From Candidatus Acidiferrales bacterium (GTDB lineage: Bacteria > Acidobacteriota > Terriglobia > Acidiferrales > UBA7541): DNA of 64,000 bases. The notes beneath the pieces were generated by a model. The model worked only from the letters and a program-made list of their open reading frames with translations. It was not told the origin of the DNA and searched no databases. Positions within the stretch are counted from its first letter, which is position 1, and each line of letters starts with the position of its first letter. The stretch covers positions 633 to 64,632 of the forward strand of contig JBEKBY010000011.1 of the NCBI GenBank assembly GCA_050015155.1, in the 5' to 3' direction. This document shows, piece by piece, positions 187 through 62,875 of this stretch. Both the position numbers and the translations under genes were made by a program.

Positions 187-1146
187 CTACTCACTGCGAT
201 ACCGATCGAAAAAATCGAAAACAGCAGGAAGCGTTAAGGTCACCATGCCACCGTGGTCGGCGTCGACTTCGATGTATTCCAGATCGAAACCCTGGGCTAT
301 CATCCAATCCCGCATCAAATGGCTGCCCTTCACTGACGGCAACGCCTTCGTCCCCTCGGACATCATGACCGGCATGGTCCGGATGCGATCCCAGGGATAG
401 TTCGCCTCATCAACAAACGGACCGGACATGGGCGCGATGGCTCGCCATAACTGGGAATATTTTGCCCCGAGATACCAGGTCCCTCCGCCGCCCATCGAGT
501 GACCCATCAAGAAAATGGACGTCTGGTCTATCGGATATTCATTGAGGACCATCTCGAGGACATTCAGGACGTCCTTTTCGCTAAATTCCAGCGCCCGCTT
601 CTGTTCCGGCGTCACATCGGCTCTTTGTTTTGCAGCGGCTTCGGGTTGGCCGAAGACCGCAGGAAGTCTGAGCGGAGTTCCATAGGCACCTAAGGGGCTA
701 TAGCCCAGAGGTGACACCAAAACATAACCGTGCTGCTCGGCCAGGCGAAGAAGCTGCTTACCGTTGCCATCCAAATACCGGTTCTCGTCTGAACCACCTC
801 CGTGAAGCATCACGATGAGAGGCAATTTCGATTGACCGTCCCACGAGGTTGGGACGTAAAGGCGATACGGCATGTCCGTTCCGGCAGCGGAGAATCTATA
901 GGTGCGATGTTGGTCACCTTTGGCCCGCCACTGAGGATTGCCGGGTGCCGCTAGGCTCTTCGCCAGCGATTGCGATTCGCGGATTTGCTGGTCTGCATCG
1001 AGAGCCGAACCGAACGCGATAGGCTGTGCCGAACACGGGTTCGACTGAGGGACGCAAGGCAGTACCGTCGGCGGCGGATTCTGTCGTGCAGTTACCGCAC
1101 TGGCCAAAAGAGCTACGGCCAACGGGATGCGAATCGTTACCTTCAT
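187..1146 (-). CDS. secreted alpha/beta hydrolase (carboxylesterase / PHB-depolymerase-like esterase)
   Basis: N-terminal signal peptide MKVTIRIPLAVALLASAVTA. LIVMLHGGG oxyanion-type motif and GHSMGG nucleophile elbow (G-x-S-x-G). Confidence 0.8.
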   Translation of the reverse strand: MKVTIRIPLAVALLASAVTARQNPPPTVLPCVPQSNPCSAQPIAFGSALDADQQIRESQSLAKSLAAPGNPQWRAKGDQHRTYRFSAAGTDMPYRLYVPTSWDGQSKLPLIVMLHGGGSDENRYLDGNGKQLLRLAEQHGYVLVSPLGYSPLGAYGTPLRLPAVFGQPEAAAKQRADVTPEQKRALEFSEKDVLNVLEMVLNEYPIDQTSIFLMGHSMGGGGTWYLGAKYSQLWRAIAPMSGPFVDEANYPWDRIRTMPVMMSEGTKALPSVKGSHLMRDWMIAQGFDLEYIEVDADHGGMVTLTLPAVFDFFDRYRSE

Positions 1147-1180
1147 CGTCCGCTCTGTCGCCCTGGGCCTTGCGCGTTCC

Positions 1181-2164
1181 TCAGTCGATCTTCTTCTTTC
1201 GAATCACCCACCGAGGATTGACGCACAGCCCGCAAGTCGCTCCCTTAAACATCAGGCTGGCGCGCTGATCGCCTCTCAGCTGCCAGTCTAGCCAAGCAAC
1301 GGCAACGCCGCTGAACTCGCCCCCGTCTGGTTGACGATACGTGCCACCATGAGTGACTCCTCTTTCGTAGCCTCGAAATATCGGAACGGACGCAATGCGC
1401 TCGAAATCGTCGTCAGCGTTTGCAAAGGCGATGTCTTGAGCATCGCCGCTGATGTATGCCACCGGCGTATGGAGCGACTTTAGGTCATCCTTGCTCATGG
1501 ACTTTCCCCCGGCCATTTCGGTCGGCTTGGGGAAAAGACCGCTATTCCAAATCATGGCGGTCGTTATGCGAGGATCCGCCGCTACCTCGATCGCCTGTAC
1601 ACCGCCGCAAGACTGGCCCATTACGGCGATTTTCTTGCTGTCCAGCCGCTGATAGTACTTGCTGCCGGCACGTTGATTTTCGGCGATAGCCCAATTGATG
1701 GCTTCAATCAATTGGACAGAATGGGTCGCCGACGGAGGCAGATTGGGTGGAGGTTGGGTAGGATCAGACCCTTGAGGCCTCGGCGGCACGGCTGGGCCCT
1801 GTGGGAATCCTGCGGCGTTCAACTGCACTATTGGACCGAGGGCGATAACAAGATATCCGTATGAAGAAATCTCTGTAAGAAACGGTGCGAAGAAATTCCC
1901 GGCATTCGCACACGCACCGTTACCCCAGACGACGATCGGCAAAGAAGTGCCGTTCAACGCTGATAGATCATCCGGCCGATATATTGTGTGCCCGGGGAGA
2001 CCTGGATCCATTTCCATGATGGTCTTGTAAGGCCCCGAGCCAACCATCGGCCCAGCCCCAGGAGACCTGCCGTCGGGTTCCTGGGCGGCTGATACCGTCT
2101 GAACCATCCAGAAGCCGAACAGGCAAAGGAGGCCAACCACCGTACGCGAGGAAATAGTTTTCAT
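1181..2164 (-). CDS. secreted alpha/beta hydrolase (serine esterase, family uncertain)
   Basis: Signal peptide ..LLCLFGFWMVQTVSAAQ. G-x-S-x-G elbow in VMGQSCGG. Pro-rich insert. Sits between two other esterase genes on the same strand. Confidence 0.75.
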   Translation of the reverse strand: MKTISSRTVVGLLCLFGFWMVQTVSAAQEPDGRSPGAGPMVGSGPYKTIMEMDPGLPGHTIYRPDDLSALNGTSLPIVVWGNGACANAGNFFAPFLTEISSYGYLVIALGPIVQLNAAGFPQGPAVPPRPQGSDPTQPPPNLPPSATHSVQLIEAINWAIAENQRAGSKYYQRLDSKKIAVMGQSCGGVQAIEVAADPRITTAMIWNSGLFPKPTEMAGGKSMSKDDLKSLHTPVAYISGDAQDIAFANADDDFERIASVPIFRGYERGVTHGGTYRQPDGGEFSGVAVAWLDWQLRGDQRASLMFKGATCGLCVNPRWVIRKKKID

Positions 2165-2232
2165 TCTTCAATACCTCTCGACTGAGTTACCGGCATTCAC
2201 GAATCGAAGATCTCGATCGCAAATAGCTGACG

Positions 2233-3936
2233 CTACGCCGGGAAGAGAATGTTTTCGATCACCTCGCGGGACTGGCGCGCGGGGTCCTTCACCACTTCGC
2301 TCGTCGAGTTGATCATCATCACGTTGCGATCCGCGGCTGAGTACGCCGGCCAGCGCGGGAAGCCCTTGGAATTCGGACTCCCTGTTGCGGCAAATGCAGC
2401 CCACGCGCCGCTGACTCGTTGGGCGAGCGGGAAAATATCGGGTGCACTGCCCGTGAGCTTTTGCACGAGCGGGTCGCTCACGTTATCGAAGACGAACGGC
2501 ATCTCGATCGTGTGCGGCGAGCGGAGCTTGCCCTTCAGGATTGGCGTCTCCCAGGTGAATTCGTAGACGAACGTGGGAGCTTTACCGAGGGCGGCGCGAC
2601 GCTCGGCGATTTTGGCGGTGAACGCTACCGTGGGATAGGCGCTTGCGATCAGGAAGTAGAGGCCCGTGGAATTTTCGTTTGGGTAGTCGCTGCGGAACGC
2701 CTGGATTGCCGCCTCCGCGTGGTCGCCAAGGAGGGATTGGATGCGTTGGTGCAAGCCTGCCTCGTCGAGTGTGAACGCGGCGGAATCACCGGCAGCGAAA
2801 AGCGTCAGTTCGGTGCGATTGAAACCGATGAGAACCGGCACGTCGGCGGAGACTTCTGGTGCGACCGGATCGAAGGGATTCTGCAGGAGCGAGACTCCGT
2901 CAACGACAGGCGAGAAACCCGCGATCATCCCGGGAATGAAGCCGCCAAGTTTGCGGTTGACGGCACCCTGCGCGGCCATAAGCCGCTCGAGCGGCAGCGA
3001 CTGAATGTCCATGATGCTATCAGGCTTGATGCCGAGCTCGGCTAGGACCATGTCGCCAACTTTAGTCGCGTAGTCGAGTGAATTCATCTTGACGCCTGGG
3101 CCGCTTTCGATGACGGCTCGATTGAAAAGTCCTTTCGCCGGAGGCATAGCGAGAAGCGTGGACACTTTTTGCCCGCCGCCCGATTCTCCGAAGATGAGGA
3201 CCCTGCTTGGATCGCCGCCGAAATTGGCAATGTTGTCACGCACCCAGGCCAGCGCGGCCACGATATCGAGCATGCCGACGTTGCCGGAGGCCTTGAACAA
3301 ATCGCTAGCGTGACCGAGGCAGGTATAGCCGAGCAGGCCGAGGCGGTGATTGATTGTGACGACCACGACATCGCCACGACGCGCGAGATTCGCCCCGTCA
3401 TACAGAGGAGCGGAGCCGGAGCCAGAGGTGAATGCGCCTCCGTGGCACCAGACCATCACGGGACGCTTGTGGTTGTCCTTCACGCTCGGCGTCCAAACGT
3501 TGAGAACGAGACAATCCTCGCCTTCGAGGATTCCCGTGGGATTCGACGTGGAAGCCATGAAATCCGCGCCAGCGAGAATGCCGGGTGCGCCCGGGATTGT
3601 CTGGGGAGCGGAGTGGCCGTACTCGAGAGCGTCGCGAACGCCGGCCCACGGTTCGGGCTTGACGGGCGGCATGAAGCGATTTTTCCCTGCGGTTGATGTG
3701 CCGTAGGGAACGCCCTTGAAAACGCTGACGCTTTTGTTCGTAGCACCGCGGATTTTTCCCGTGGCCGTCTCAACAACCGGCTGCGAATCGGTGGGCGACG
3801 CGCCTGCAGCGAGAGCGGCGTTCAGAGTCGAGCCTGCGAAAAGCTTGTGCATGATCGCGGCACCTCCCCCCAGAAGCGACGCTTTCATTAAGGAGCGGCG
3901 CTCAACGCCGATTCCCGAGCGTTGGCTCTTTGTCAT
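2233..3936 (-). CDS. carboxylesterase type B (para-nitrobenzyl esterase-like), Tat-exported
   Basis: 567 aa. Twin-arginine leader (VERRSLMKASLLGGGAA). Type-B carboxylesterase motifs EDCLVLNVWTP, VWCHGGAF and FGESGGG. Confidence 0.9.
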   Translation of the reverse strand: MTKSQRSGIGVERRSLMKASLLGGGAAIMHKLFAGSTLNAALAAGASPTDSQPVVETATGKIRGATNKSVSVFKGVPYGTSTAGKNRFMPPVKPEPWAGVRDALEYGHSAPQTIPGAPGILAGADFMASTSNPTGILEGEDCLVLNVWTPSVKDNHKRPVMVWCHGGAFTSGSGSAPLYDGANLARRGDVVVVTINHRLGLLGYTCLGHASDLFKASGNVGMLDIVAALAWVRDNIANFGGDPSRVLIFGESGGGQKVSTLLAMPPAKGLFNRAVIESGPGVKMNSLDYATKVGDMVLAELGIKPDSIMDIQSLPLERLMAAQGAVNRKLGGFIPGMIAGFSPVVDGVSLLQNPFDPVAPEVSADVPVLIGFNRTELTLFAAGDSAAFTLDEAGLHQRIQSLLGDHAEAAIQAFRSDYPNENSTGLYFLIASAYPTVAFTAKIAERRAALGKAPTFVYEFTWETPILKGKLRSPHTIEMPFVFDNVSDPLVQKLTGSAPDIFPLAQRVSGAWAAFAATGSPNSKGFPRWPAYSAADRNVMMINSTSEVVKDPARQSREVIENILFPA

Positions 3937-4009
3937 CTGGCCCTCCCATTACGTTGGGGCCGATTCTAACTGAGTTTCAGTAGAACGTGTCGATAATGCA
4001 CGCGGGCAC

Positions 4010-4564
4010 ATGCGCGTCTTCCACTTCCTTGTGCGTGGCTTCGTCGCTGACATGGTACGCTCCTCCCTTTCAGCTCGCACTCCCGTATACGATCCTCACG
4101 AACTCCCTGAGCTGGAGATTGCCAAATATGCGAGCAGCGAAGATCTAACGAGCCAATTCCGCGATTTTCAGAAGCGCGCGATCGTGTTTCACTCAAATCC
4201 ATCACCCAAAGATGTAGAAATTGCGGGGCACATGCGCCTTAATCTCGCGGTCCAGTCAGATGCTCCGGATTTCGACCTCTGGGCTCAGGTCTTAATGGTT
4301 CTGTCTGACGGATCAACGATTCAGCTTGGCGAAGACATAAGGCGTGCCTGCTTTCGAAACAGCTTCTTCAAAGAAGAGCTTTTGAGGCCGGGGCAGACTC
4401 ATATGGGTCTGGCTCTGGTGAGAGCCAAGCCCGAAACCGTGATTGCTTGGCACCGACGAGGGTTTCGGTTATATCAGAGCTGGAAGAAGCGCTACAGTCG
4501 TGAACCGTCAAGGATTTGGACGAATGGAACAGCCGGCCAGTGTCACGATGCTTTGCGGCGCTGA
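4010..4564 (+). pseudogene. remnant: C-terminal domain of a CocE/NonD-family hydrolase fused in frame to a transposase/integrase-like N-terminal motif
   Basis: About 4180-4395 reads like a PepX_C/CocE-NonD C-terminal domain (FHSNPSPKDVEIAGHMRLNLAVQSDAPDFDLWAQVLMVLSDGS..RRACFRNS..LLPGQ). It switches abruptly to KPETVIAWHRRGFRLYQSWKKR, a motif typical of rve-type transposase N-termini. No catalytic hydrolase domain is present. Confidence 0.5.
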
Positions 4565-4626
4565 GCAACGGCCGAACGCTCTTCCCAGGGATGGGAACTT
4601 GTTACAGCCGAATCCGTTTCGACAGC

Positions 4627-6414
4627 TCACCTCCCGCTTCGGCAAACGAAATTCGCTGCGTCTTCGATGCTGCCGCTCCCTTGGTAGTGCGCCGTTTGCG
4701 GGTAAGGGCATAAGGGCCGGGTGCGTCCAGGCCATGGGCTATTGGGGCCAGCTTTCGCAAGAATGTGATCCGGGGCCGTTCCCTTCTCCACCCAATTGAC
4801 CAACGCCCCGAATGCATCGAATTGATCAGTGGCAGGGCCACCTCCGCAGTGCGCCATGCCCGGAACCGGAAAGACGCGAACAAAGTCCGCGGAGGACTCA
4901 CCGTTGAGCTTCTCAACTTCGCGGTACCAGGCGAGTGTATCGTTCAGCGAGAACACCGGATCGGAGGCTCCCTGGTACACGATCATTCTTCCGCCATGCG
5001 CGCGAAATCCCTCCAAATGTGGTGAGCGGGCCGAGATGTCATCCCAAGCGGAACGTTCAAAGGGAGCTTCGGTCGCGTAGATTTTCGGCGCGTCGTGATC
5101 GAAATCGAAACCAAGCGCGTAATCGAGAGCGGATTTCGGATCCGCGTTCAAAGCTGTGGGCGGTGTGGTGAAAATCGCCGCGAGCGCGGGCCCGCCCATC
5201 GCAACATTAATGCCCGGAAAACCGCCCGTTGCAGGACCGATCTTCCAGATGCGCCAACCGTCGCTGCCCATGCCCGCATCAATCGGCCAATCGGAATAGA
5301 GTGATTTGCCGCTGCTGTTCTTCGGACCTTCGTGCACGCGCCCCAACTCGTCTATCTGCGCACCACTCAAGCACGAATCGCTCTTCGAAACGGAACAGTT
5401 TCTTTGAATCAATTCCTTCGCCACCCGTCGCCACGTACAAGACTCGAATGCCGCCGTGATGCCGTCCCGCACTCCATCGTCTGCATCGCACGCCGCCAGG
5501 ATCGCCTCGCGCACAGTCCGGAATTGTGCTTCCGTGAAGCTGGTTGGCAGAAGCTTCGGATCGAAGCTCTTTGCGCCTGCGGCCGCCACCAAACTGCCAA
5601 ACGCCTGCGTGTCCCAAGCTTCAGCAACAGCAGCCCGAGGCAACGAAAATCCCGGCGCGCCCGCAACGATCCCATCGAACTCATTGGGAAATCGCTGGGC
5701 AAGAACCATGCCTTCTTCCCCACCTTTGGAGCATCCGACGAAGTAAGATCGTTCAGCAGGACGACCGTAGTACGCGCGGATGATGGCCTTTGCCGCCTCT
5801 GCGACGGGTTTCAGAGAAGCTCCACCATAGTCTGCCCGTGCCTGGGGATCAAAGCCGAACGCAACAGGTCCGCCTCGTGTGGGAACGCTGTTCGTGGCAT
5901 TGTCGTGGCCCGAATCTTCCGATACGACTGCGTAGCCTTGAGCAACAGCAGGTGGCATGCCTGGAGCCGTCGAACCGATCGCGCTGCCCAACTCCCCCTC
6001 GGTGCCGCCTCCGCCCTCGAAGAAAAATTTTCCATTCCAATTAAGAGGCAACCGCATGTGGAAACGAATCGCGTAACGCTGCCCGTCTACTCCCACGCGC
6101 TCCTGCATGACTCCGGAGAGCTCGCAGTGGGCCGGAAGCGTTACCGGCAGCGCCATTGGAATTGCTACCTGCGAGCCGCCTGCGCGCCATGCGGACTGCT
6201 CGATACGTATCGTCGGATCGGGCCATTGGTGCTTCGTTTTTGCAAGCTGAGTGCAACGCTCCGAAACATTCGTCTCTGCGGCCGACCCAGGCGGTATGCC
6301 GTTCTGAGCGGCGTGCGCTTGCGTAGCGAGTGTGAGGAACAGAATCACTGTCCCCAGCGCCTCCCGAAAACAAACCAATCTGCGAGTGGGGACCGGGCGA
6401 GCCAATTTCTTCAA
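4627..6414 (-). CDS. tannase/feruloyl esterase family alpha/beta hydrolase, secreted
   Basis: 595 aa with signal peptide. GCSKGG nucleophile motif (GCSxGG) and overall length and cysteine pattern typical of the tannase/feruloyl esterase family. Confidence 0.9.
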   Translation of the reverse strand: MKKLARPVPTRRLVCFREALGTVILFLTLATQAHAAQNGIPPGSAAETNVSERCTQLAKTKHQWPDPTIRIEQSAWRAGGSQVAIPMALPVTLPAHCELSGVMQERVGVDGQRYAIRFHMRLPLNWNGKFFFEGGGGTEGELGSAIGSTAPGMPPAVAQGYAVVSEDSGHDNATNSVPTRGGPVAFGFDPQARADYGGASLKPVAEAAKAIIRAYYGRPAERSYFVGCSKGGEEGMVLAQRFPNEFDGIVAGAPGFSLPRAAVAEAWDTQAFGSLVAAAGAKSFDPKLLPTSFTEAQFRTVREAILAACDADDGVRDGITAAFESCTWRRVAKELIQRNCSVSKSDSCLSGAQIDELGRVHEGPKNSSGKSLYSDWPIDAGMGSDGWRIWKIGPATGGFPGINVAMGGPALAAIFTTPPTALNADPKSALDYALGFDFDHDAPKIYATEAPFERSAWDDISARSPHLEGFRAHGGRMIVYQGASDPVFSLNDTLAWYREVEKLNGESSADFVRVFPVPGMAHCGGGPATDQFDAFGALVNWVEKGTAPDHILAKAGPNSPWPGRTRPLCPYPQTAHYQGSGSIEDAANFVCRSGR

Positions 6415-7224
6415 TCTCCGTGATGGATTCGCCTTCCGTCAAGAAGGGAATTAGTAACAGTTCTTTCCGCTGCTCCAGATTCCCTTTGTTTATGGGCCGA
6501 TTTGAAGACTTGGTAGCGATGCCGGGACTGTCGTTCAGGGTCTTCAAAAGAGCTGCAAAAACCTAGGAATTCGTTCGTTTCCAATCTGATGGCAGCTTCG
6601 AGAGCTTAATGGGATTAAGCAGCTTTTAGCGGCTATAAGCCCGAAATTCTGCCATGTTTAGTAACGGTAGTAACAAAAATTCAGAACGAACTCAAGCCGT
6701 AAAGAACCTTGACCGCTGATGCCCTGAGATGGTTGCGGGAGCTTGTGATGCGCCGAAGACGCTCGCGCTAATCGATCGCCTCAGGGGATTCGATCCGGGT
6801 TCGAATCGAGGAAATACGAGTCGGACACGAGGGGACTCCATGACCGACTCTCTGCTTAGAAGATATCCCAAGAAACGTTAGACCGCGAACCGACGGTTCA
6901 GTCGCACTAGAGGACATCGATGCCGATTGCACTCAGCGCTGGGCTACTGCTCGCCGGCGGACTTCGAAGCGGAAACTCACGCCGAACGAGCGACGGCCCA
7001 TGCAGCGGCGGCGACGTTCATCGACGGATAGCGTGACACAAACTATTGTCTCAAGCAGGGGTTCACCCCGCTCGAGCCCGTTGGACCCGACTGTGCACCA
7101 ACTGTGCACGAACGGGTTGTTTGGAGCCTGTTGGGGTTAGCTTTTGAGCGAAAGCAGATTCCCCGATTTGTTGTAAACGCTAGCAATTAAAGTGAACCGG
7201 TTGTTTGTTAGAAGCGACTCGCGC

Positions 7225-7272
7225 GCTTTGCAAGCAGGGGGTCGCCGGTTCGATCCCGGCCACGTCCACCAA
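7225..7272 (+). repeat. 48-bp direct repeat copy 1 = 3' half of tRNA-Ala(UGC) (anticodon loop to CCA), no 5' half present
   Basis: gc|TTTGCAA|GCAGG|GGGTC|GCCGG|TTCGATC|CCGGC|CACGTCC|A|CCA|a folds as anticodon loop (UGC), variable loop, T-arm, acceptor 3' strand with U70 (Ala identity G3:U70) and CCA. Upstream sequence cannot form a D-arm or the acceptor 5' strand. Confidence 0.8.
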
Positions 7273-8394
7273 ACCTCTTCACAGTATGAGACTTAGGAAA
7301 TTCTCTTTCGGTGCGCATGCCCGAAAGTGTACGAACTGTGCAAGAAAGGACTGAAACGAACCACTGTGCACAATCGCAAGGGCTATGAACCGCATCGGTG
7401 CGACCCAACATAGCTGCGCAATGCAGCAGTTCAGCAAGGTCGTCGCGATCCGATTGCGGTTTCAGTTTTTTCAATACTTCCACATTTCCCGTGTACGACG
7501 CCTCCCGCAGCCCAGTGGTGCGTAAGCCACTGAAATCTAGGAACGGATGTCGACGATCAGAGACGCAAAAGGGGGGACGTCACTGCTGGTAGCACTCCGG
7601 ATCGTCTTCTTCGCCGATCTTTGGCCCGGCTGCTCTCGGATTTGCGCCAGCCCACAGCATCAGACTGATCCATTTCAAGTTTCCTTCATGGCAGAAGTAC
7701 CGAAGGGCGCGATCTGCGTGGCCTTGCAACTTGTCCGCAAGCTCAGGATGTTTCTGCTTACATTCGATGAAGGGACGAAGCGCCGTGCGGACTTTGGCGC
7801 CAAAAGCTTCGGCAAACGGGGAACCTGTTATGAAATCGGCGCCGTGGTCCAGGAAGAATCGGATCAATTTTGGCTCCCAACTCAGCAAGACATCAGAAAA
7901 AGGAACCGCGGCAAGTTCGGCGCCGCTCTCCAGAAGAAGCTGTACAAATTCGAGATGCCGTTTCGAAACGGCGCTGCCAGGGCTTCGTTCTTTGCTTCTT
8001 GGCCGACATCACTGTGCGCAAGCAATTCCACCAAACTGTGGAATCCTTGGTCTAATGCAATTTGGAGAGGGGTTCTCTTGAATTCGGCTGGGACTCGCAG
8101 AGATTTAGGGGAACTAATCCATCGTTCGATCTCGTATAGCTTGCCCTTTTGACACAGGTTTATAAGCAGCTTGGCTTCCTCGGGCGTTAGTGCCTGCGCT
8201 ACCGACCCGGCAGAGATGGACGGAATTTCATCTACTGGCGCATTGGAAACGAAACTCTCCGTCGGGTTCGTCATTTTTGCTCGGATTGTAATGATCCGGC
8301 ACGAATCGCTCAACCGAAATGTGCGGAGCAGCTTTGGAGCAACAAGAAGGGTCTCGTTCTCGTGGAATCGTGGTGTTAAGCGCAGCCTGAACAA
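7273..8394 (-). pseudogene. ankyrin-repeat protein pseudogene (frameshift, in-frame stop, 3' end cut by the tRNA-derived repeat)
   Basis: Ankyrin-like repeats (RTPLQIALDQGFHSLVELLAH; AVSKRHLEFVQLLLESGAEL; KLIRFFLDHGADF; GNLKWISLMLWAGANP; YTGNVEVLKKL). Frame change near 7975. In-frame TGA at 7580-7582. The reading frame then runs into repeat copy 1. Likely start is ATG at 8274. Confidence 0.6.
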
Positions 8395-8419
8395 CGACTT
8401 AGATTTGAGTTCTTCCCCA

Positions 8420-8467
8420 GCTTTGCAAGCAGGGGGTCGCCGGTTCGATCCCGGCCACGTCCACCAA
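8420..8467 (+). repeat. 48-bp direct repeat copy 2 = 3' half of tRNA-Ala(UGC)
   Basis: 48/48 identical to 7225-7272. The upstream 5 nt (CCAGC) pair 4/5 with the anticodon stem, but no D-arm or acceptor 5' strand is present. Confidence 0.8.
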
Positions 8468-8851
8468 CCTTCTCTTTTGCTCTTATTGAGTTAGCTGCCT
8501 TGGTGCAACTGCACTCGATTCTCCGGTGAACGACTTCATGGCAAAATCCCCACTTGCTCAAAATCCACGGTCCAGCGATACCACTTCCACATACTCATCG
8601 TCTAGAAGAACCTTCTTTACCTCAGGCGTTTCGTCAATCCAAGTTCTGCGGCTCGCAAAAGTCAAACCGTGGCAGTTGTATTTCCTGGTCGGCGACACAG
8701 GCCGGTGAACCGCATGTGGGTACTGTCGTATGTGAGCAGCCACCTGTAGCGTCGCCCCATAGTGCATGGGCACCCAGGATATTAGATTCCTGATTTGGTT
8801 CTGCCGCCTTGAATCGAGCCTCAATTCGGCAGTTTGTAGAACGAGATGCAC
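8468..8851 (-). pseudogene. hypothetical protein remnant (Cys/His motif, possibly papain-fold amidase-like), frameshifted and 3'-truncated by repeat copy 2
   Basis: ORF 8558-8851 (..YNCHGLTFASRRTWIDE..LLDDEYVEV..) stops. It continues in another frame (..ILSKWGFCHEVVH..) that reads directly into the tRNA-derived repeat. Lower GC than the surroundings. Confidence 0.4.
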
Positions 8852-9279
8852 GCCAGATGACCTTTCCTATTATCACCAGTGATAATTACTTCTGGCGACA
8901 GAGCACATCATATTCAATCGGATACTTCAAATCAACGCAATCGTAATGTGCAAAGACCGTGCAATCGACACTTAAAGTGACACGGATACTATGAGATGGA
9001 ACTGAGAAACGGTACTGACAACCTACGTTCACCAAATCGCTTGGGAGCGGGTCCAGCCGTCGGTTGGACGGCGCGACGCGGCGAAAAATACTCCGGCCCG
9101 GACAACTCACGTCCCACTTTCGTATAACCGTATCATACAGACCAGCAGATTACTTCCGGGTACGCCGTGATCCGGGCACAATCGCCAAAGTGCGGGCAAT
9201 GGCTACGTCGCCGGCTTACGGCGTAGCTGGCTAGGTATTGGGATGCGTTAATGTTTCTAGGGGCTATAATCCAGCCCCA

Positions 9280-12003
9280 ATGACGCTGACCTCTGGCAGT
9301 CGCGTCGGCCCCTACGAAATTCTCTCCGCCATCGGTGCGGGCGGGATGGGCGAGGTTTATCGCGCCCGTGACACGCGACTGGACCGCACGGTCGCAGTTA
9401 AGGTTATCCCCGACACCTTCGCGCGCGACGCGGAGCGCTTGGCGCGGTTCGAGCGCGAAGCAAAACTTCTCGCCTCGCTGAATCATCCCAACGTCGCCGC
9501 AATCTACGGCCTCGAGGATTCTGGAAACACCAGAGCGCTGGTGATGGAGTTGGTCGAAGGGCCAACGCTGGCCGATCGCATCAAGTCCGGCCCGCTGCCG
9601 ATCGATGAAACGATTCTGATCGCCAAGCAAATCGCCGAAGGCCTTGAGTACGCTCATGAGCACGGCGTCGTGCATCGCGATCTCAAGCCAGCGAATATCA
9701 AAGTTTCGCGCGATGACTCGGTGAAGGTGCTCGACTTTGGCTTGGCGAAAGCGGTGGCAGGCGAGGTCGTCGAAACCGATATTGGAACGTCGCCCACGCT
9801 GACCCGAATGGCTACGCAGGCGGGCTTCATTCTCGGCACGGCGGCGTACATGTCGCCGGAGCAGGCGAAGGGCAAATCCGTAGACCGCCGCGCGGACATC
9901 TGGGCGTTCGGCTGCGTGCTGTATGAAATGCTGACGGCAAAAATGCCGTTCCAGGGCGAGACAGTCACCGACACTTTGGCGGCCGTGGTCCGCGCCGAAC
10001 CGGACTGGTCGCAGCTTCCCGCGGCGACGCCGACGCACGTTCGCGTTCTCTTGCAACGCTGCTTGCAGAAAGACCCGAAGCAGCGATTGCGCGACATCGG
10101 AGACGCGCGCATTTCGCTCGAAGAAGTTCTTGCCGGCGCGCCGGAGGCATCGTCAGTTGGGGTTACACCAGTCTCCTCGCCGCTCTGGCGTCGCGTCTTG
10201 CCGTGGGCGCTATTCAGCGCGACAGCGCTGGCGCTCGCGGTGGTCGGATGGGTATACCATCGCAGCGCAAGCACCCCCGGTCCCGCGGCGGAAGCAACTC
10301 GCTTCGAAATCCCTGTGCCGGAGAAGACGACCCTGCCACCCAATGGCGTGTTCTCGTTGTCCCCTGACGGCCGCCAGTTGGCATTTTTTGCAGCCGGTTC
10401 CGACGACGTCTATCGCCTGTGGGTCCGCTCGCTGGGTTCGCTCGAGGCGCGCCCGCTGCCTGGCTCGGAATCTCCCCAATTCCCTCTATTTTTCTGGTCG
10501 CCCGATAGCCGGTACATAGCGTTCGACGCCGGCGGAAAACTCAAGAAAGTCGATATCTCGGGCGGCCCGCCGCAAACCATCTGCGATTTACGTGCGTTGG
10601 TAGTGGGCGGTTCTTGGAACAGCGATGGCGTAATCATCCTCGGGCAAGCGCCCGGAGGCCTGATGCGGGTGTCCGCCGGCGGCGGGTCCGCGTCACCGCT
10701 CACCACTCTCGATTCATCCCGCAGCGAAATCCAACATGTCCTTCCGTCGTTCCTTCCCGACGGACGGCACTTCATCTACCAGCGTACTTCGAGCAAGCCT
10801 GAGAACAGCGGCGTCTACATTGGCTCGCTCGACGCCAAGCCCGAGGAACAAGATTCGAAACGGCTCTTGGCGACTACCTTTGGGACGGCGTTCGTGCCGT
10901 CTTCCGGCCCTGGCATGGGAAAATTGCTCTTTATACGCGACGGGACGCTCATGACGCAGCCGCTCGACATCCACCGGATGGAACTGGCGGGCGAGCCGGT
11001 TACGGTGGCTGAGCAGGTTGGATCCTTCCTCGACTTCGGCTTCTTCTCAGCTTCGACCAACGGCGTTCTGGCTTACAGGACAGGTAGCAGTGGTGCAACC
11101 TCTCAGGTCACTTGGTTTGACCGGCAAGGGAAGACCCTCGGTACGATCGGGGAACCGAATTACACTACCGCGCTGTCCCTTTCTCCGGATGGAACGCAAG
11201 CCGCCGTCAGTCGACGCGATTCCATAGGGTCGAATGAGACTCTCTGGCTGCTCGATCTCTCGCGGGGCACGAGCACGCGGTTCACGTTTGGTCCATTCTT
11301 TGACATTGATCCCATTTGGTCTCCGGACGGCAAGCGAATCGTCTTCGATTCCAGCCGCAGCGGCGCATACGATCTTTATCAGAAGCTGGCGAGCGGCGTG
11401 AAAGACGAGGAGCTTCTGCTGAAGTCGGGCGAGAACAAGCGGCCCACGAGCTCGTCGCGCGACGAACGATTCTTGCTCTATACGGCGTCGGACACGAAAA
11501 CAACGAAGGAAGACTTATGGGTGCTTCCGCTCGAGGGTGATAAGAAACCATTCCTCTTGCTGGGCACGGAGTTCAACAACGGCGATGGTGCTTTCTCGCC
11601 CGACGGACGTTGGGTCGCCTACGTCTCTGATGAATCGGGCCGCAATGAGATTTACGTTCGGACATTCTCGCCGGGCTCCTCCGGGGCTGCTGCGGACGCC
11701 GGAGGCAAGTGGCTGATTTCCGCCAATGGAGGTAGCCAACCTCGGTGGCGCCGGGACGGCAAAGAGTTGTACTACCTCGCTCCCGACGGGAAGCTGATGG
11801 CTGTCGAGATTGCAACGAACCCAGTGTTCCGGGCAGGAGTCCCCAAACTTCTTTTCCAGACGCCGCCCCATGCCGAGATTATTAGGGGATACCAGTGGGA
11901 TGTAACGCCGGATGGCACGCGTCTTCTCTACTTGGCTCCGACGAAACAAGGCGCCGCCCCTTTCACCGTGGTGTTGAACTGGCAGGCGGGGTTGAAGAAA
12001 TGA
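9280..12003 (+). CDS. Ser/Thr protein kinase with one TM helix and C-terminal TolB-like (PD40/WD40-like) beta-propeller
   Basis: Hanks kinase motifs GAGGMGEVY, VAVK, HRDLKPANI, DFGLAK and SPEQ. TM segment VLPWALFSATALALAVVGWVY. Repeated SPDG/WSPDG..IAF/VF motifs. Start set at MTLTSGSRVGPYEI (ATG 9280), not the upstream GTG-type start in the ORF track. Confidence 0.9.
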   Translation: MTLTSGSRVGPYEILSAIGAGGMGEVYRARDTRLDRTVAVKVIPDTFARDAERLARFEREAKLLASLNHPNVAAIYGLEDSGNTRALVMELVEGPTLADRIKSGPLPIDETILIAKQIAEGLEYAHEHGVVHRDLKPANIKVSRDDSVKVLDFGLAKAVAGEVVETDIGTSPTLTRMATQAGFILGTAAYMSPEQAKGKSVDRRADIWAFGCVLYEMLTAKMPFQGETVTDTLAAVVRAEPDWSQLPAATPTHVRVLLQRCLQKDPKQRLRDIGDARISLEEVLAGAPEASSVGVTPVSSPLWRRVLPWALFSATALALAVVGWVYHRSASTPGPAAEATRFEIPVPEKTTLPPNGVFSLSPDGRQLAFFAAGSDDVYRLWVRSLGSLEARPLPGSESPQFPLFFWSPDSRYIAFDAGGKLKKVDISGGPPQTICDLRALVVGGSWNSDGVIILGQAPGGLMRVSAGGGSASPLTTLDSSRSEIQHVLPSFLPDGRHFIYQRTSSKPENSGVYIGSLDAKPEEQDSKRLLATTFGTAFVPSSGPGMGKLLFIRDGTLMTQPLDIHRMELAGEPVTVAEQVGSFLDFGFFSASTNGVLAYRTGSSGATSQVTWFDRQGKTLGTIGEPNYTTALSLSPDGTQAAVSRRDSIGSNETLWLLDLSRGTSTRFTFGPFFDIDPIWSPDGKRIVFDSSRSGAYDLYQKLASGVKDEELLLKSGENKRPTSSSRDERFLLYTASDTKTTKEDLWVLPLEGDKKPFLLLGTEFNNGDGAFSPDGRWVAYVSDESGRNEIYVRTFSPGSSGAAADAGGKWLISANGGSQPRWRRDGKELYYLAPDGKLMAVEIATNPVFRAGVPKLLFQTPPHAEIIRGYQWDVTPDGTRLLYLAPTKQGAAPFTVVLNWQAGLKK

Positions 12004-36422: not shown

Positions 36423-36450
36423 TTTCGAGTTTCGTTTTTCGAGTTTCGTT
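36423..36450. repeat. perfect 14-bp tandem duplication TTTCGAGTTTCGTT x2
   Basis: Read directly, 19 nt upstream of the EF-G start codon. Confidence 0.6.
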
Positions 36451-36468
36451 CCTGAGGCGAGGTGACAA

Positions 36469-38598
36469 ATGAAATCCTACACGACCGATTGGATCCGCAA
36501 CGTGGGCATTGTAGGCCACGGCGACACGGGGAAGACCCAGCTCGTGTCGTCGTTGCTCTTCACGGCGGGGATGACGCCTCGGCTCGGTAAGGTAACCGAC
36601 GGCTCGACCACGACCGACTGGGACGAAGAAGAAATCGCGCGGAAAATATCGATCAACACGGGGCTCGCTTACGCCGAATGGCAGGCGCCGGGCCAGCCGG
36701 AAAAAACAAAGATCAATCTTCTCGACACGCCCGGCTATTCGACGTTCATCAATGAAACGAAGTCCTCCCTGATCGCCGCCGACGCGTCGCTGATCCTGGT
36801 GGACGCCGCCGCAGGCGTGCAGGTCGTCACCGAGAAGGTCTGGGACTACGCGACGGAACACGATCAGCCGCGCGCCTTCGTGCTGAACTGGATGGATCGC
36901 GAGCTTGCGAGCTTCGAGCGTGCGCTCGGATCGCTTGAGCAGGTGTTCGGCCGCGGCGTGGTGCCGATTCAACTGCCGATCGGCTCCGAGAAGAATTTCC
37001 GCGGAGTCGTCGATCTCGTGGCCATGAAGGCGCTCATCTACACGGTCGATGGCGACGGCAAGGCCAAAATCGAAGAGATTCCGGCGGACCTCGCCGAGGA
37101 AGCGAAGGCCGCGCACGAAAGGCTGGTCGAGCTGGTCGCCGAAGGCGACGACGAACTGATGCAGGAGTTCTTCGACAAAGGGACGCTCCCGGTCGAGGAT
37201 CTGAAAAAGGGCCTGCACGAGGAAGTGCGTGACAAGAAGATCTTACCCGTGCTGCTCAGCTCCGCGCTGCACAATGTCGGCAGCGACGCGATCCTGAATT
37301 TCCTGGTCGACATTTTCCCTTCTCCTGCCTTCCGCGGAAAAGCATCCGGCCATAAGACGCCGGATCACAAGGGCGAACCCGTCGAGCGGAAAATCGCCTC
37401 CTCGGAGCCGCTGTCGCTCTTCGTCTTCAAGACCGTTGCCGACCCGTTCGCGGGCCGCATCACGTATTTCAAGGTCATGTCCGGCGTGCTGAAAAACGAC
37501 GCCACGGTCCAGAACTTCAACCGCAACTCGCAGGAGCGGTTCCAGCACGTGCAGGTGATGCAGGGGAAAACGGCGACGGCCGTGGCCGAGCTTTACGCAG
37601 GCGATATCGGTGCGATCGCAAAGCTAAAGGACACCGTCACGGGCGAGACGCTCGGCGATAAAAATGCCCCGATCTTCTATCCCCCGGCGCGCATTCCCGA
37701 GCCCTCGATCACGTTCGCGATCGAGCCGAAAACGCGCGCAGATGAAGACCGCATCGGCACGGCCATCCACAGGATTCTCGAAGAGGACCTTGCCCTGCGG
37801 TTCGGGCGCGACCCCCAGACCAAAGAGTTTCTCCTTTCGGGCGCCGGGCAGCAGCACATCGAGGTCGTCGTCGCCAAGCTGCGCAAGCGGTATCACGTCG
37901 AGATGACGCTCAAGCCCCCGAAAGTCCCCTACCGCGAGACCATCCGCGGCAAGGCCGATGCCGAGGGCAAACACAAGAAGCAGACCGGCGGCCACGGGCA
38001 GTTCGGCCTTTGCCGGATTAAGATGGAGCCGTTGCCGCGCGGCAAGGGAGTCGAATTCGTGGACGACGTTTTCGGCGGCGCGATTCCCAAGAACTGGATC
38101 CCGTCGGTTGAAAAAGGCGTGCGCGACGCGGCCGAGCGCGGCTATCTCGCGGGCTTTCCGGTGGTCGACTTCCGCGTGAGCCTTTACGACGGCAAATACC
38201 ATGACGTGGACTCGAGCGACATGGCGTTCAAGATTGCAGGCTCGCTGGCATTCAAGGAAGCCATGAAGCAGGCGCGGCCCGCGCTGCTTGAGCCGATCAT
38301 GCAGGTCGAGGTCTACGCGCCCGATCAATACTCGGGCGACCTGATGGGCCATCTGAGTGGGCGGCGGGGAAAAATCAGCGGAAGCGAAACGCGCGCCGGA
38401 AGCGTGGTCGTCAAGGCGCTCGTGCCGCTATCGGAAATGCTGAGCTATGCGAACGAACTGATCTCCATGACGCAGGGACGCGGCAGCTATTCGATGGAGT
38501 TTTCGCACTACGACTTCGTCCCGGCGGAAATCGCGGAAAAAGTGATCGCGGCCCACAAGCCGCACCACGCAGAAGAGGAAGAGACCGCCTCGGCTTAG
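36469..38598 (+). CDS. elongation factor G paralog (EF-G2-like)
   Basis: 709 aa. GTPase motifs GHGDTGKTQ (G1), DTPGY (G3) and NWMD (G4, normally NKMD). Domains II-V are recognisable. Not in an rpsL-rpsG-fusA-tuf context. Confidence 0.9.
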   Translation: MKSYTTDWIRNVGIVGHGDTGKTQLVSSLLFTAGMTPRLGKVTDGSTTTDWDEEEIARKISINTGLAYAEWQAPGQPEKTKINLLDTPGYSTFINETKSSLIAADASLILVDAAAGVQVVTEKVWDYATEHDQPRAFVLNWMDRELASFERALGSLEQVFGRGVVPIQLPIGSEKNFRGVVDLVAMKALIYTVDGDGKAKIEEIPADLAEEAKAAHERLVELVAEGDDELMQEFFDKGTLPVEDLKKGLHEEVRDKKILPVLLSSALHNVGSDAILNFLVDIFPSPAFRGKASGHKTPDHKGEPVERKIASSEPLSLFVFKTVADPFAGRITYFKVMSGVLKNDATVQNFNRNSQERFQHVQVMQGKTATAVAELYAGDIGAIAKLKDTVTGETLGDKNAPIFYPPARIPEPSITFAIEPKTRADEDRIGTAIHRILEEDLALRFGRDPQTKEFLLSGAGQQHIEVVVAKLRKRYHVEMTLKPPKVPYRETIRGKADAEGKHKKQTGGHGQFGLCRIKMEPLPRGKGVEFVDDVFGGAIPKNWIPSVEKGVRDAAERGYLAGFPVVDFRVSLYDGKYHDVDSSDMAFKIAGSLAFKEAMKQARPALLEPIMQVEVYAPDQYSGDLMGHLSGRRGKISGSETRAGSVVVKALVPLSEMLSYANELISMTQGRGSYSMEFSHYDFVPAEIAEKVIAAHKPHHAEEEETASA

Positions 38599-57746: not shown

Positions 57747-57821
57747 TGGTAGCGCTAACGGGAATCGAACCCGTATTTCGGCCTTGAAAGGGCCGCGTGC
57801 TAACCGTTGCACCATAGCGCC
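57747..57821 (-). tRNA. tRNA-Glu (UUC)
   Basis: 75-nt cloverleaf folded by hand. Acceptor GGCGCUA/UAGCGCU (G1:U72 wobble). D stem GUGC/GCAC. Anticodon stem CGGCC/GGCCG with loop CUUUCAA. T arm ACGGG-UUCGAUU-CCCGU. Encoded ACCA. Confidence 0.9.
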
Positions 57822-62681: not shown

Positions 62682-62758
62682 CAGAAATTCATGGTAGGCC
62701 CGTGCGGGCTCGAACCGCAGACCTCCACCGTGTCAAGGTGGCGCTCTAGCCAACTGAG
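62682..62758 (-). tRNA. tRNA-Val (GAC)
   Basis: 77-nt cloverleaf. Acceptor AGGCCCG/CGGGCCU. D arm GCUC-AGUUGGCUA-GAGC. Anticodon stem CCACC/GGUGG with loop UUGACAC. T arm UGCGG-UUCGAGC-CCGCA. Encoded ACCA. Confidence 0.9.
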
Positions 62759-62875
62759 CTACGGGCCTACTGACTGAAAGTTATATTAACACACCGCGGT
62801 TTGCGTGCCATCCAGAGCGATCTGGCTCTGGAGCCGACGGCACTGCTCACTTCCCGTTTCGCCAGTGAGAAATGC

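Follow-up and report, generated by a model that had tools for sequence, protein, structure and literature searches.

Two identical 48-bp direct repeats in the window (by which we mean the whole 64,000-nt stretch of DNA analysed) very probably represent two attachment-site cores, remnants of integrative elements that targeted a tRNA-Ala(UGC) gene; these elements appear to have been stacked one on another and to have decayed, with the loss of the tRNA itself. Copy 1 (positions 7225–7272, plus strand) and copy 2 (positions 8420–8467, plus strand) were identical at 48 of 48 positions, and their starts were separated by 1195 nt. With up to three mismatches allowed, they were the only matches to the 48-mer in the 64-kb window (0 matches in 100 shuffles), and the count remained at two for the 74 kb obtained by extending the window 10 kb to the left. 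Beyond the core, the likeness between the two copies extended weakly, up to 54 nt. The 48-mer is composed of 2 nt of the anticodon stem, the loop TTTGCAA, GCAGG, GGGTC, the T arm, CACGTCC, A, CCA and an extra A; without this last A, it corresponds to positions 30–76 of the tRNA-Ala(UGC) encoded in Acidobacteriota MAGs (Terriglobia/“Acidiferrales”). Forty-seven of its nucleotides were identical to positions 30–76 of the tRNA-Ala(tgc) called by ARAGORN in related genomes (positions 3298–3373 of locus L149, for example). The first-pass annotation of this DNA had described both the direct repeats and this parsing into tRNA parts; alignment, with the repeats against each other and with intact tRNA-Ala(tgc) genes, bore out the two descriptions. 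Metagenome contigs from several independent assemblies and samples were 99.97–100% identical over the region and carried both copies, which shows that the repeat is no assembly artefact. JGI samples 3300039242, 3300043776 and 3300040946 contain this population. The contigs encoding exactly the proteins of the window shared a single arrangement, and no strain variants with an empty or otherwise filled site were found among them.

No tRNA was identified at either copy by ARAGORN or by Rfam at the gathering threshold, the only tRNAs found in the window by these methods being a tRNA-Glu (57747–57821, minus strand) and a tRNA-Val (62692–62768, minus strand). The 5′ half of tRNA-Ala, GGGCGTGTAGCTCAGCTGGGAGAGCACCT, was absent from the whole window, with up to three mismatches allowed, and no cloverleaf was formed by either copy together with its own upstream DNA. 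Neither copy gave the full fold, scoring above the family threshold, of a tRNA or tmRNA gene. The earlier view of both copies as tRNA fragments, with no intact tRNA overlapping either of them, was thus confirmed.

The first 44 nt of the 48-mer were used to scan one representative genome per species, yielding at least 118 matching stretches, nearly all in MAGs labelled Acidobacteriota, Terriglobia or “Candidatus Acidiferrales”. Among the matches listed, 83 of 121 sites were intact tRNA-Ala(UGC) genes, in which the matching stretch was preceded by GGGCGTGTAGCTCAGCTGGGAGAGCACCT, and the other 38 were fragments. The intact sites corresponded to a canonical 76-nt tRNA-Ala(UGC) with an encoded CCA, called as such by ARAGORN in L149 and L158, and their acceptor strand was exactly GGGCGTG, the GGGCGUG predicted from the repeats at first reading. 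In 36 of 39 fragments (the two window copies included), identity to the tRNA ended no more than 2 nt (0–2) from one GC dinucleotide, located two bases before the anticodon loop, whatever the family of the adjoining arm. The largest cluster of ORFs around the sites listed contained 40 ORFs lying beside a tRNA or fragment, 35 of which adjoined intact genes. These integrase ORFs were mostly on the minus strand and started 15–95 nt past the end of the tRNA; all six of those tested matched PF00589, including one from the syntenic relative L149. The presence of integrases beside tRNA-Ala and their matches to PF00589 indicate that this tRNA gene is a tyrosine-integrase hot spot in the clade. The repeats had been interpreted as a tyrosine-integrase footprint at a tRNA, and the comparison with more than 100 related genomes supports this interpretation, with integrases beside the intact gene and a common junction in the fragments. 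Across Terriglobia-like MAGs, this one tRNA-Ala(UGC) gene is a common landing site for at least four families of attP arms. As regards a phage origin, no match to the 44-mer was found in IMG/VR. There was one match to the arm motif, in L133, in which the arm adjoins a prophage with a serine recombinase rather than the tRNA core, and a phage origin was rejected.

The DNA upstream from copy 1 contains a conserved module, identified by blastn upstream from fragments in other genomes and interpreted as an attP-type P arm (7085–7224, plus strand; hereafter referred to as family C/D). These 140 nt were 74–90% identical to the upstream flanks of fragments in 17 other genomes, including L080, L098, L040 and L092. 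The arm begins with tandem ACTGTGCAC repeats, at 7090 and 7101, followed by a near-invariant block of about 55 nt (GGGGTTAGCTTTTGAGCGAAAGCAGATTCCCCGATTTGTTGTAAACG.TAGCA.TTAA) and then by about 30 variable nucleotides. The distance from the first repeat to the CCA was 182–184 nt in the 17 genomes. Further upstream, the DNA was unrelated between genomes and encoded assorted metabolic genes, conservation ending at about 190 nt upstream. An nhmmer att profile, which includes the window's own sequence, gave a full-length match to the copy 1 arm. RNAalifold detected no covariation in the 17 module sequences (covariation term +0.75), and the conservation of the arm is best read as that of protein-binding DNA, that is, of putative attP arms. 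Two other candidates were rejected: a structured or tRNA-like RNA, given the lack of compensatory support in these 17 sequences and the sub-threshold Rfam tmRNA scores, and a group I intron or split tRNA, given the lack of a 5′ half in the window and the point at which conservation ends.

A tRNA-derived origin unconnected with integration, in which the 48-mer would be a dispersed repeat of the SINE or MITE type or part of a functional tRNA-like or tmRNA-like RNA gene, is highly improbable. Relaxed Rfam searches did give weak tmRNA matches over both copies (20 and 17.7 bits), and the upstream module is strongly conserved. However, these scores do not come near the gathering score of 47 and the matches cover the T arm and acceptor end alone, with the acceptor helix unpaired, and the module lacks covariation. 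A dispersed repeat unrelated to tRNA-Ala is also difficult to reconcile with the presence of only two copies in 74 kb and with their identity to a real tRNA gene with adjoining integrases.

On the other side of copy 1, positions 7273–7376 (plus strand) are, from their repeats and homology, probably a P′ arm with an integrase specificity matching that of the P arm. They contain GTGTAC (7327–7332), ACTGTGCA at 7335 and ACTGTGCACAAT at 7363. Of the five ACTGTGCA sites in the 64-kb window, four surround copy 1 (7090, 7101, 7335 and 7363), and repetition and conservation together suggest that these are putative arm-type sites. The segment is homologous to the flank following the intact tRNA-Ala of L121, to the flanks following the fragments of L149, L042 and L120, and to L089. 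In L010, L021, L106 and L116, the repeats of the copy 1 arms also occur in the interval from the tRNA to the integrase gene, the L021 integrase protein matching PF00589, and the ACTGTGCA motif adjoins one integrase clade in other genomes. A short segment following the P′ arm (7521–7587, plus strand) also follows this arm in L121 and L149; no integrase gene was found between the two in the window, L121 or L149.

The sole coding content between the copies is a pair of overlapping minus-strand ORFs (7580–8274), of 130 aa (7882–8274) and 102 aa (7580–7888), regarded here as a cargo remnant. By eye, the pair resembles ankyrin repeats, and it probably represents one gene split by a frameshift; Pfam gave no match to either ORF, and the region was called as two genes in all the metagenome contigs. 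A homologous piece (81% nucleotide identity) lies beside a diverged fragment in the 95%-identical relative L211, in the opposite orientation. The TetR-like ORF following the fragment in L149 was considered as a possible intact form of the pair and rejected, as the two displayed no similarity.

Copy 2 is preceded by an arm of a different family. By blastn, alignment and clustering, positions 8322–8419 (plus strand) were assigned to a second attP family (hereafter referred to as family A), of which they form the P arm, with 80–90% blastn identity to the upstream flanks of fragments in L023, L032, L064, L047, L044, L040 and L029; the carriers of this arm include two diverged sites. Its repeats are GGAGCAGC at 8325 and GGAGCAAC at 8336, in which GGAGCARC is repeated in tandem, followed by AAGCGCAGCCTGAACAACGACTTAGATTTGA. 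The same three methods assigned the upstream arms of copies 1 and 2 to different families, so that at least two integration events are required, as had been proposed from the existence of two copies. Downstream from copy 2, a P′-like flank (8468–8521, plus strand) contains the composite site TTGGTGCAAC-TGCAC (8500–8514), similar to ATTGGAGCAACTGTGCAC of the L064 P′ arm. This flank is common to the L047 fragment (81% identity over 8377–8521) and to the DNA following the intact tRNA in L085, L059 and L057; in L057, the 378-aa ORF adjoining the tRNA reads as a putative tyrosine integrase from its RHxxxxH…Y motifs. Each copy therefore looks as if it were flanked by element arms on both sides, in a P-core-P′ (attP-like) context, in which case the copies would mark where one tandem element meets the next, and would not be plain attR ends. 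The earlier description of the copies as integration scars holds for displaced and stacked 3′ halves; it is refined by this reading and by the suggestion that the remnant of a third element begins to the right of copy 2.

Immediately upstream from the copy 1 P arm lies the 3′ remnant of an insertion sequence (6906–7066, plus strand), truncated on its left side, and read as IS3-family from its C-terminal motifs. It consists of about the last 40 codons of the transposase (motif CRLHSALGYCSPADFEAE, stop codon at 7029–7031) and the right end of the IS (7030–7066). A transposase-like ORF of 292 aa from L100 matched the window at 6915–6968 in tblastn searches (78% identity over 18 aa). The IS end, GTGA(T/C)(G)CACA…TGTCTCA…GGGGTTCA, also occurs just upstream from the P arms of L100, L080 and L092; its position relative to the arm is that of the window in L080 and L092, with about 100 nt more between it and the arm in L100. 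The truncation of the IS on the left indicates a loss of DNA at this point. A decayed third scar (7052–7091) was considered and rejected: the 16-mer concerned, CAAGCAGGGGTTCACC (7052–7067), belongs to the IS3 terminal repeat region, as in L100, L080 and L092, and its match to the att profile had an nhmmer E-value of 0.9. Likewise, a remnant of the native DNA upstream from the tRNA (as in L149 and L158) was sought in 6300–7100, with alignment scores no better than those for shuffled sequences.

No integrase homologue was detected in the whole window by tblastn with 21 integrases from related loci, and no integrase remnant was found in 6000–9400 with 115 tRNA-adjacent ORFs, consistent with the earlier remark that no integrase survives between or beside the copies. 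A search for a tyrosine integrase beyond the edge of the window, as the first-pass annotation had advised, was negative for the 10 kb to the left. Neither an integrase nor a 5′ tRNA half nor a further scar was present in the window or in these 10 kb, and profiles of both arm families identified no further att-like sites in the same DNA.

The intact tRNA gene might be expected to the left of copy 1. The contig comprising the window and 10 kb leftwards (L001) contained no tRNA in the added 10 kb, and no tRNA-Ala was found in the extra 3 kb of the 96%-identical contig L136. A metagenome scan for DNA further to the left gave relatives, at 93% identity or less, and not the source contig itself. Syntenic relatives were found through the DUF8021 gene at the far end of L001. 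In L149 and L158 (74–76% protein identity), an intact tRNA-Ala lies about 75 nt after an amidohydrolase gene. The order in L149 is amidohydrolase, intact tRNA-Ala, truncated integrase, 4.9 kb of cargo and fragment, and the flank after the fragment is 87% identical to window positions 7224–7375; L149 provides the canonical version of this structure. In the window genome, the amidohydrolase gene is 13.3 kb to the left of copy 1, and there is no tRNA where L149 and L158 have tRNA-Ala. The beta-lactamase-like gene following the amidohydrolase gene is cut at about 35 codons, and is intact in L135 and L154. After the cut gene comes a 13-kb block containing DUF3237, MFS, CoA-transferase, HGD-D, esterase and tannase genes, and this block leads to the IS remnant and then to copy 1. 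In a 95%-identical relative (L136/L211), the block is conserved only up to window position 4322, beyond which there are other genes and a diverged fragment. Taken together, these differences make the neighbourhood a rearrangement hot spot.

These data also bear on the possibility that the array is complete, with an intact tRNA-Ala and an integrase lying further to the left and the esterase/tannase cluster (187–6414) lying within one large island or stack. We consider this possible, if unlikely. The orientation rule, from which the intact gene had originally been placed to the left, perhaps beyond nt 1, does point in that direction, and the position of tRNA-Ala directly after the amidohydrolase gene in L149 and L158 would correspond to a point far to the left of copy 1 in the window genome. 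The intervening block starts inside a truncated gene and contains genes of accessory type, and the divergence of the close relative at 4322 implies that at least the tannase region is variable. However, no tRNA was found at the L149/L158 position, in the 10 kb to the left of nt 1 or in the additional DNA of L136; the G+C content of the esterase cluster (0.55–0.62) is like that of the rest of the window, only 6250–9250 being lower; and the truncated IS beside the P arm is a sign of DNA loss. The other proposal made at first reading, loss of the tRNA gene, is favoured by this truncated IS beside the copy 1 arm. Two histories fit the data: the 13-kb block may be island DNA of which the tRNA-proximal end has been replaced, or it may be chromosomal, the tRNA and most of the first element having been deleted beside the IS. 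Loss of the tRNA end of the array by deletion is favoured.

We therefore retain, as the best explanation, a decayed stack of elements that has lost its tRNA. The attP of each element would consist of a family-specific P arm, the tRNA core (from 2 nt before the anticodon loop to the CCA) and a P′ arm, with a tyrosine integrase gene coming after the latter. The element would be inserted through strand exchange at the anticodon loop, and its core copy would rebuild the tRNA, the original 3′ half being displaced to the far end; repeated insertion would stack elements, with one displaced 3′ half between neighbours. The window would correspond to the decayed distal part of such a stack, in three parts: the right end of a C/D element (truncated IS3, P arm and copy 1), a 1.15-kb remnant (C/D-type P′ arm, split cargo gene, family-A P arm and copy 2) and the P′-like start of a further element. 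We infer that at least two, and probably three, elements were stacked. Internal deletions would have removed the integrases; the left arm of the 1.15-kb interval is of type C/D and its right arm of type A. The intact tRNA would have disappeared with the proximal end of the array, most likely by deletion, one breakpoint of which, at about 6906, would have truncated the IS. Neither site is able to move by itself, but a matching integrase acting in trans could still recombine the two copies, because both cores and their arms are intact.

Several observations weigh against this explanation. The intact tRNA that it requires was absent from both the window and the 10 kb leftwards. Elsewhere, in genomes sampled as 8-kb tiles, no integrase adjoined most of the family C/D and family A arms, and the DNA upstream from the arms was unrelated cargo in each genome, so that the one link between these arms and a particular integrase is through shared repeat motifs. 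Finally, both cores are still identical, at 48 of 48 positions, to a functional tRNA, without having any obvious function, and such undecayed cores imply either that the events were recent or that the sites are in use.

In an unlikely alternative, the arm-plus-core units are not dead scars, but the recombination sites of integrase-less cassettes moved in trans, by CIME-like accretion or in an integron-like manner. The fixed length of the C/D module (182–184 nt), with 75–90% identity in 17 species-level genomes and unrelated cargo beyond it, speaks for such units, as does the undecayed state of both window cores. Small intervals between a tRNA and a fragment, or after a fragment, with cargo and without an integrase, were also found in L027, L041 and L042, and one contig carried at least four fragments. 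Nevertheless, neither excision nor a circular product was seen, and all assemblies of the population displayed one arrangement. Integrases further away would be missed in loci examined as 8-kb tiles, and the decay of integrases in old arrays, which has been described for other systems (bioRxiv 10.1101/2020.12.28.424599), suffices to account for their absence. The more specific conjecture that the tRNA-Ala(UGC) locus may seed integron-like arrays, with the 140-nt arm and 48-nt core (182–184 nt) as a cassette site, the integrases acting in trans and the window boundaries still competent, is doubtful.

In this uncultured Acidobacterium of soil or peat, the 6.9–8.5 kb region can be seen both as a rearrangement hot spot and as a junction where DNA acquired horizontally is joined, and this status is useful for judging whether neighbouring genes (the tannase, the esterases and the kinase paralogues) are core or accessory. 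The arm sequences and their likely arm-type repeats may help to delimit islands in fragmented MAGs, and the arm-family data may guide searches for integrase/att pairs. Our understanding of how such elements work is unchanged by the finding.

Genomic islands delimited by a regenerated tDNA and a displaced fragment are well established, as are an anticodon-centred class of such islands and tandem arrays (PMC4383910). The window resembles the class “A” islands of Islander/TIGER (Williams 2002; Hudson et al. 2015, PMC4383910) in having a fragment running from the anticodon loop to the 3′ end, in direct orientation. Both 48-mers are of the kind of cognate tRNA fragment found at the distal end of an Islander island, and their block, which starts 2 nt before the loop, places them in the anticodon-centred attP class (PMC4383910). 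Likewise, as for class A islands, PF00589 integrases are present at this tRNA in relatives, and stacking at one tDNA fits this class. Unlike Islander islands, the locus retains just att junctions and about 1 kb of cargo. An intact cognate tDNA, upstream and in the same orientation, was not found in the window, in the 10 kb to the left or at the syntenic position, and no PF00589 integrase was detected inside the island by tblastn of the window. With its two fragments and two arm families but no integrase, the locus falls short of a tandem array as Islander defines it; lacking both an integrase and an intact tDNA, it would be called neither an island nor a tandem by the Islander filters.

The copy 1 site also has the layout of a lambda-type (heterobivalent) attP, with repeated sites on both arms at a fixed distance from the core: ACTGTGCAC direct repeats lie about 125–135 nt upstream and about 60–100 nt downstream from the core, and this distance is fixed across genomes, the second family having repeats of its own. 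In the window, these arm sites are predicted from sequence. Cis-mobilizable elements of the CIME type, described in work on streptococcal ICESt1 and its CIMEs, are bounded by att sites, lack recombination genes and accrete at one att site; tandems of phages and ICEs are also reported. The interval 7273–8419 is likewise enclosed by two att sites and, with a split ORF lacking any Pfam match, contains no recombination or transfer genes; it fits this type by structure only. It differs from CIMEs in having no conjugation or phage genes nearby, in the host phylum and in the target gene, and mobilization by a helper would be putative. In Prochlorococcus islands, tandem elements are separated by partial tRNAs and degenerate remnants are found (bioRxiv 10.1101/2020.12.28.424599). 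The window shares degenerate remnants, extra partial tRNAs and metabolic cargo with these islands, which are built by tycheposons, whereas the integrases in its relatives are ordinary PF00589 proteins adjoining the tRNA. The locus is a relic of a known kind rather than of a new one; its novelty is confined to details, namely the taxon, the target and the arm families represented.

On the upstream side of the first tRNA-Ala(UGC) 3' half (copy 1, window 7225–7272), beyond its P arm, lies the remnant of an insertion sequence. A truncated element of the IS3 family, a name based on the C-terminal motifs of its transposase, occupies window positions 6906–7066, retaining the transposase C-terminus and the right end, and lies directly 5' of the P arm (7085–7224), the upstream flank that copy 1 shares with fragments in other genomes. 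The same IS end was found at an identical position relative to the arm in two of the compared loci (L080 and L092), and also in a third (L100), but about 100 nt farther from the arm. Between copy 1 and copy 2 (8420–8467), the minus strand carries two ORFs overlapping by 7 nt (7580–8274), which look like a single ankyrin-repeat-like gene split by a frameshift; a Pfam search of this ORF pair yielded no match. At locus L211, a piece homologous to the ORF pair adjoins a diverged fragment, in the reverse orientation. Just to the right of copy 2, the gene at 9280–12003 lies close to an ECF sigma factor and to two kinase paralogues, and matches, with 37% identity, a Ser/Thr kinase-PD40 protein carried as cargo between two fragments on contig DATHIB010000195.1 (loci L070 and L081), which contains at least four tRNA-Ala fragments.

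In several contexts unrelated to one another, a gene encoding a DUF8021 protein adjoins a tRNA-Ala gene or fragment: L001 (19217–20960), the contig extending 10 kb to the left of window nt 1, and loci L042, L071 and L211 (7783–10942). The EF-G-like gene of the window (36433–38598) has orthologues with 82% nucleotide identity in two metagenome-assembled genomes, followed on the 3' side by an intact tRNA-Ala(UGC), 115 nt away in L043 and 2.3 kb away in L046; the tRNA is absent downstream of the window gene. At three tRNA-Ala sites (L066, L078 and L035), an integrase ORF encoded on the other strand extends across the 3' half of the tRNA, and at six others (L007, L011, L038, L049, L073 and L106) a second integrase lies 5' of the tRNA, on the plus strand, ending 60–100 nt short of it. 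These integrases may belong to elements using the 5' side of the tRNA gene. In the viral locus IMGVR_UViG_3300050821_018866 (L133, region 1–2300), the C/D arm (121–262) is followed by a prophage end in place of the tRNA-Ala core. This end carries a large serine recombinase (460–2235, minus strand), together with DUF2924, ParB/methylase and terminase genes, and a tRNA 3'-end-like sequence is present on the minus strand at 481–530. A serine-integrase phage seems to be located in or beside a C/D-type att module.

An ORF of 56 codons on L001 (17011–17181), about 5.9 kb to the left of the window, corresponds to the N-terminal end (~35 codons) of a beta-lactamase-like gene that the relatives L135 and L154 carry whole. 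This gene is cut at codon ~7 in L149 and L158 and fused there to the tRNA-Ala upstream region, whereas in L001 the cut falls after ~35 codons, indicating two breakpoints in one gene, in two lineages.
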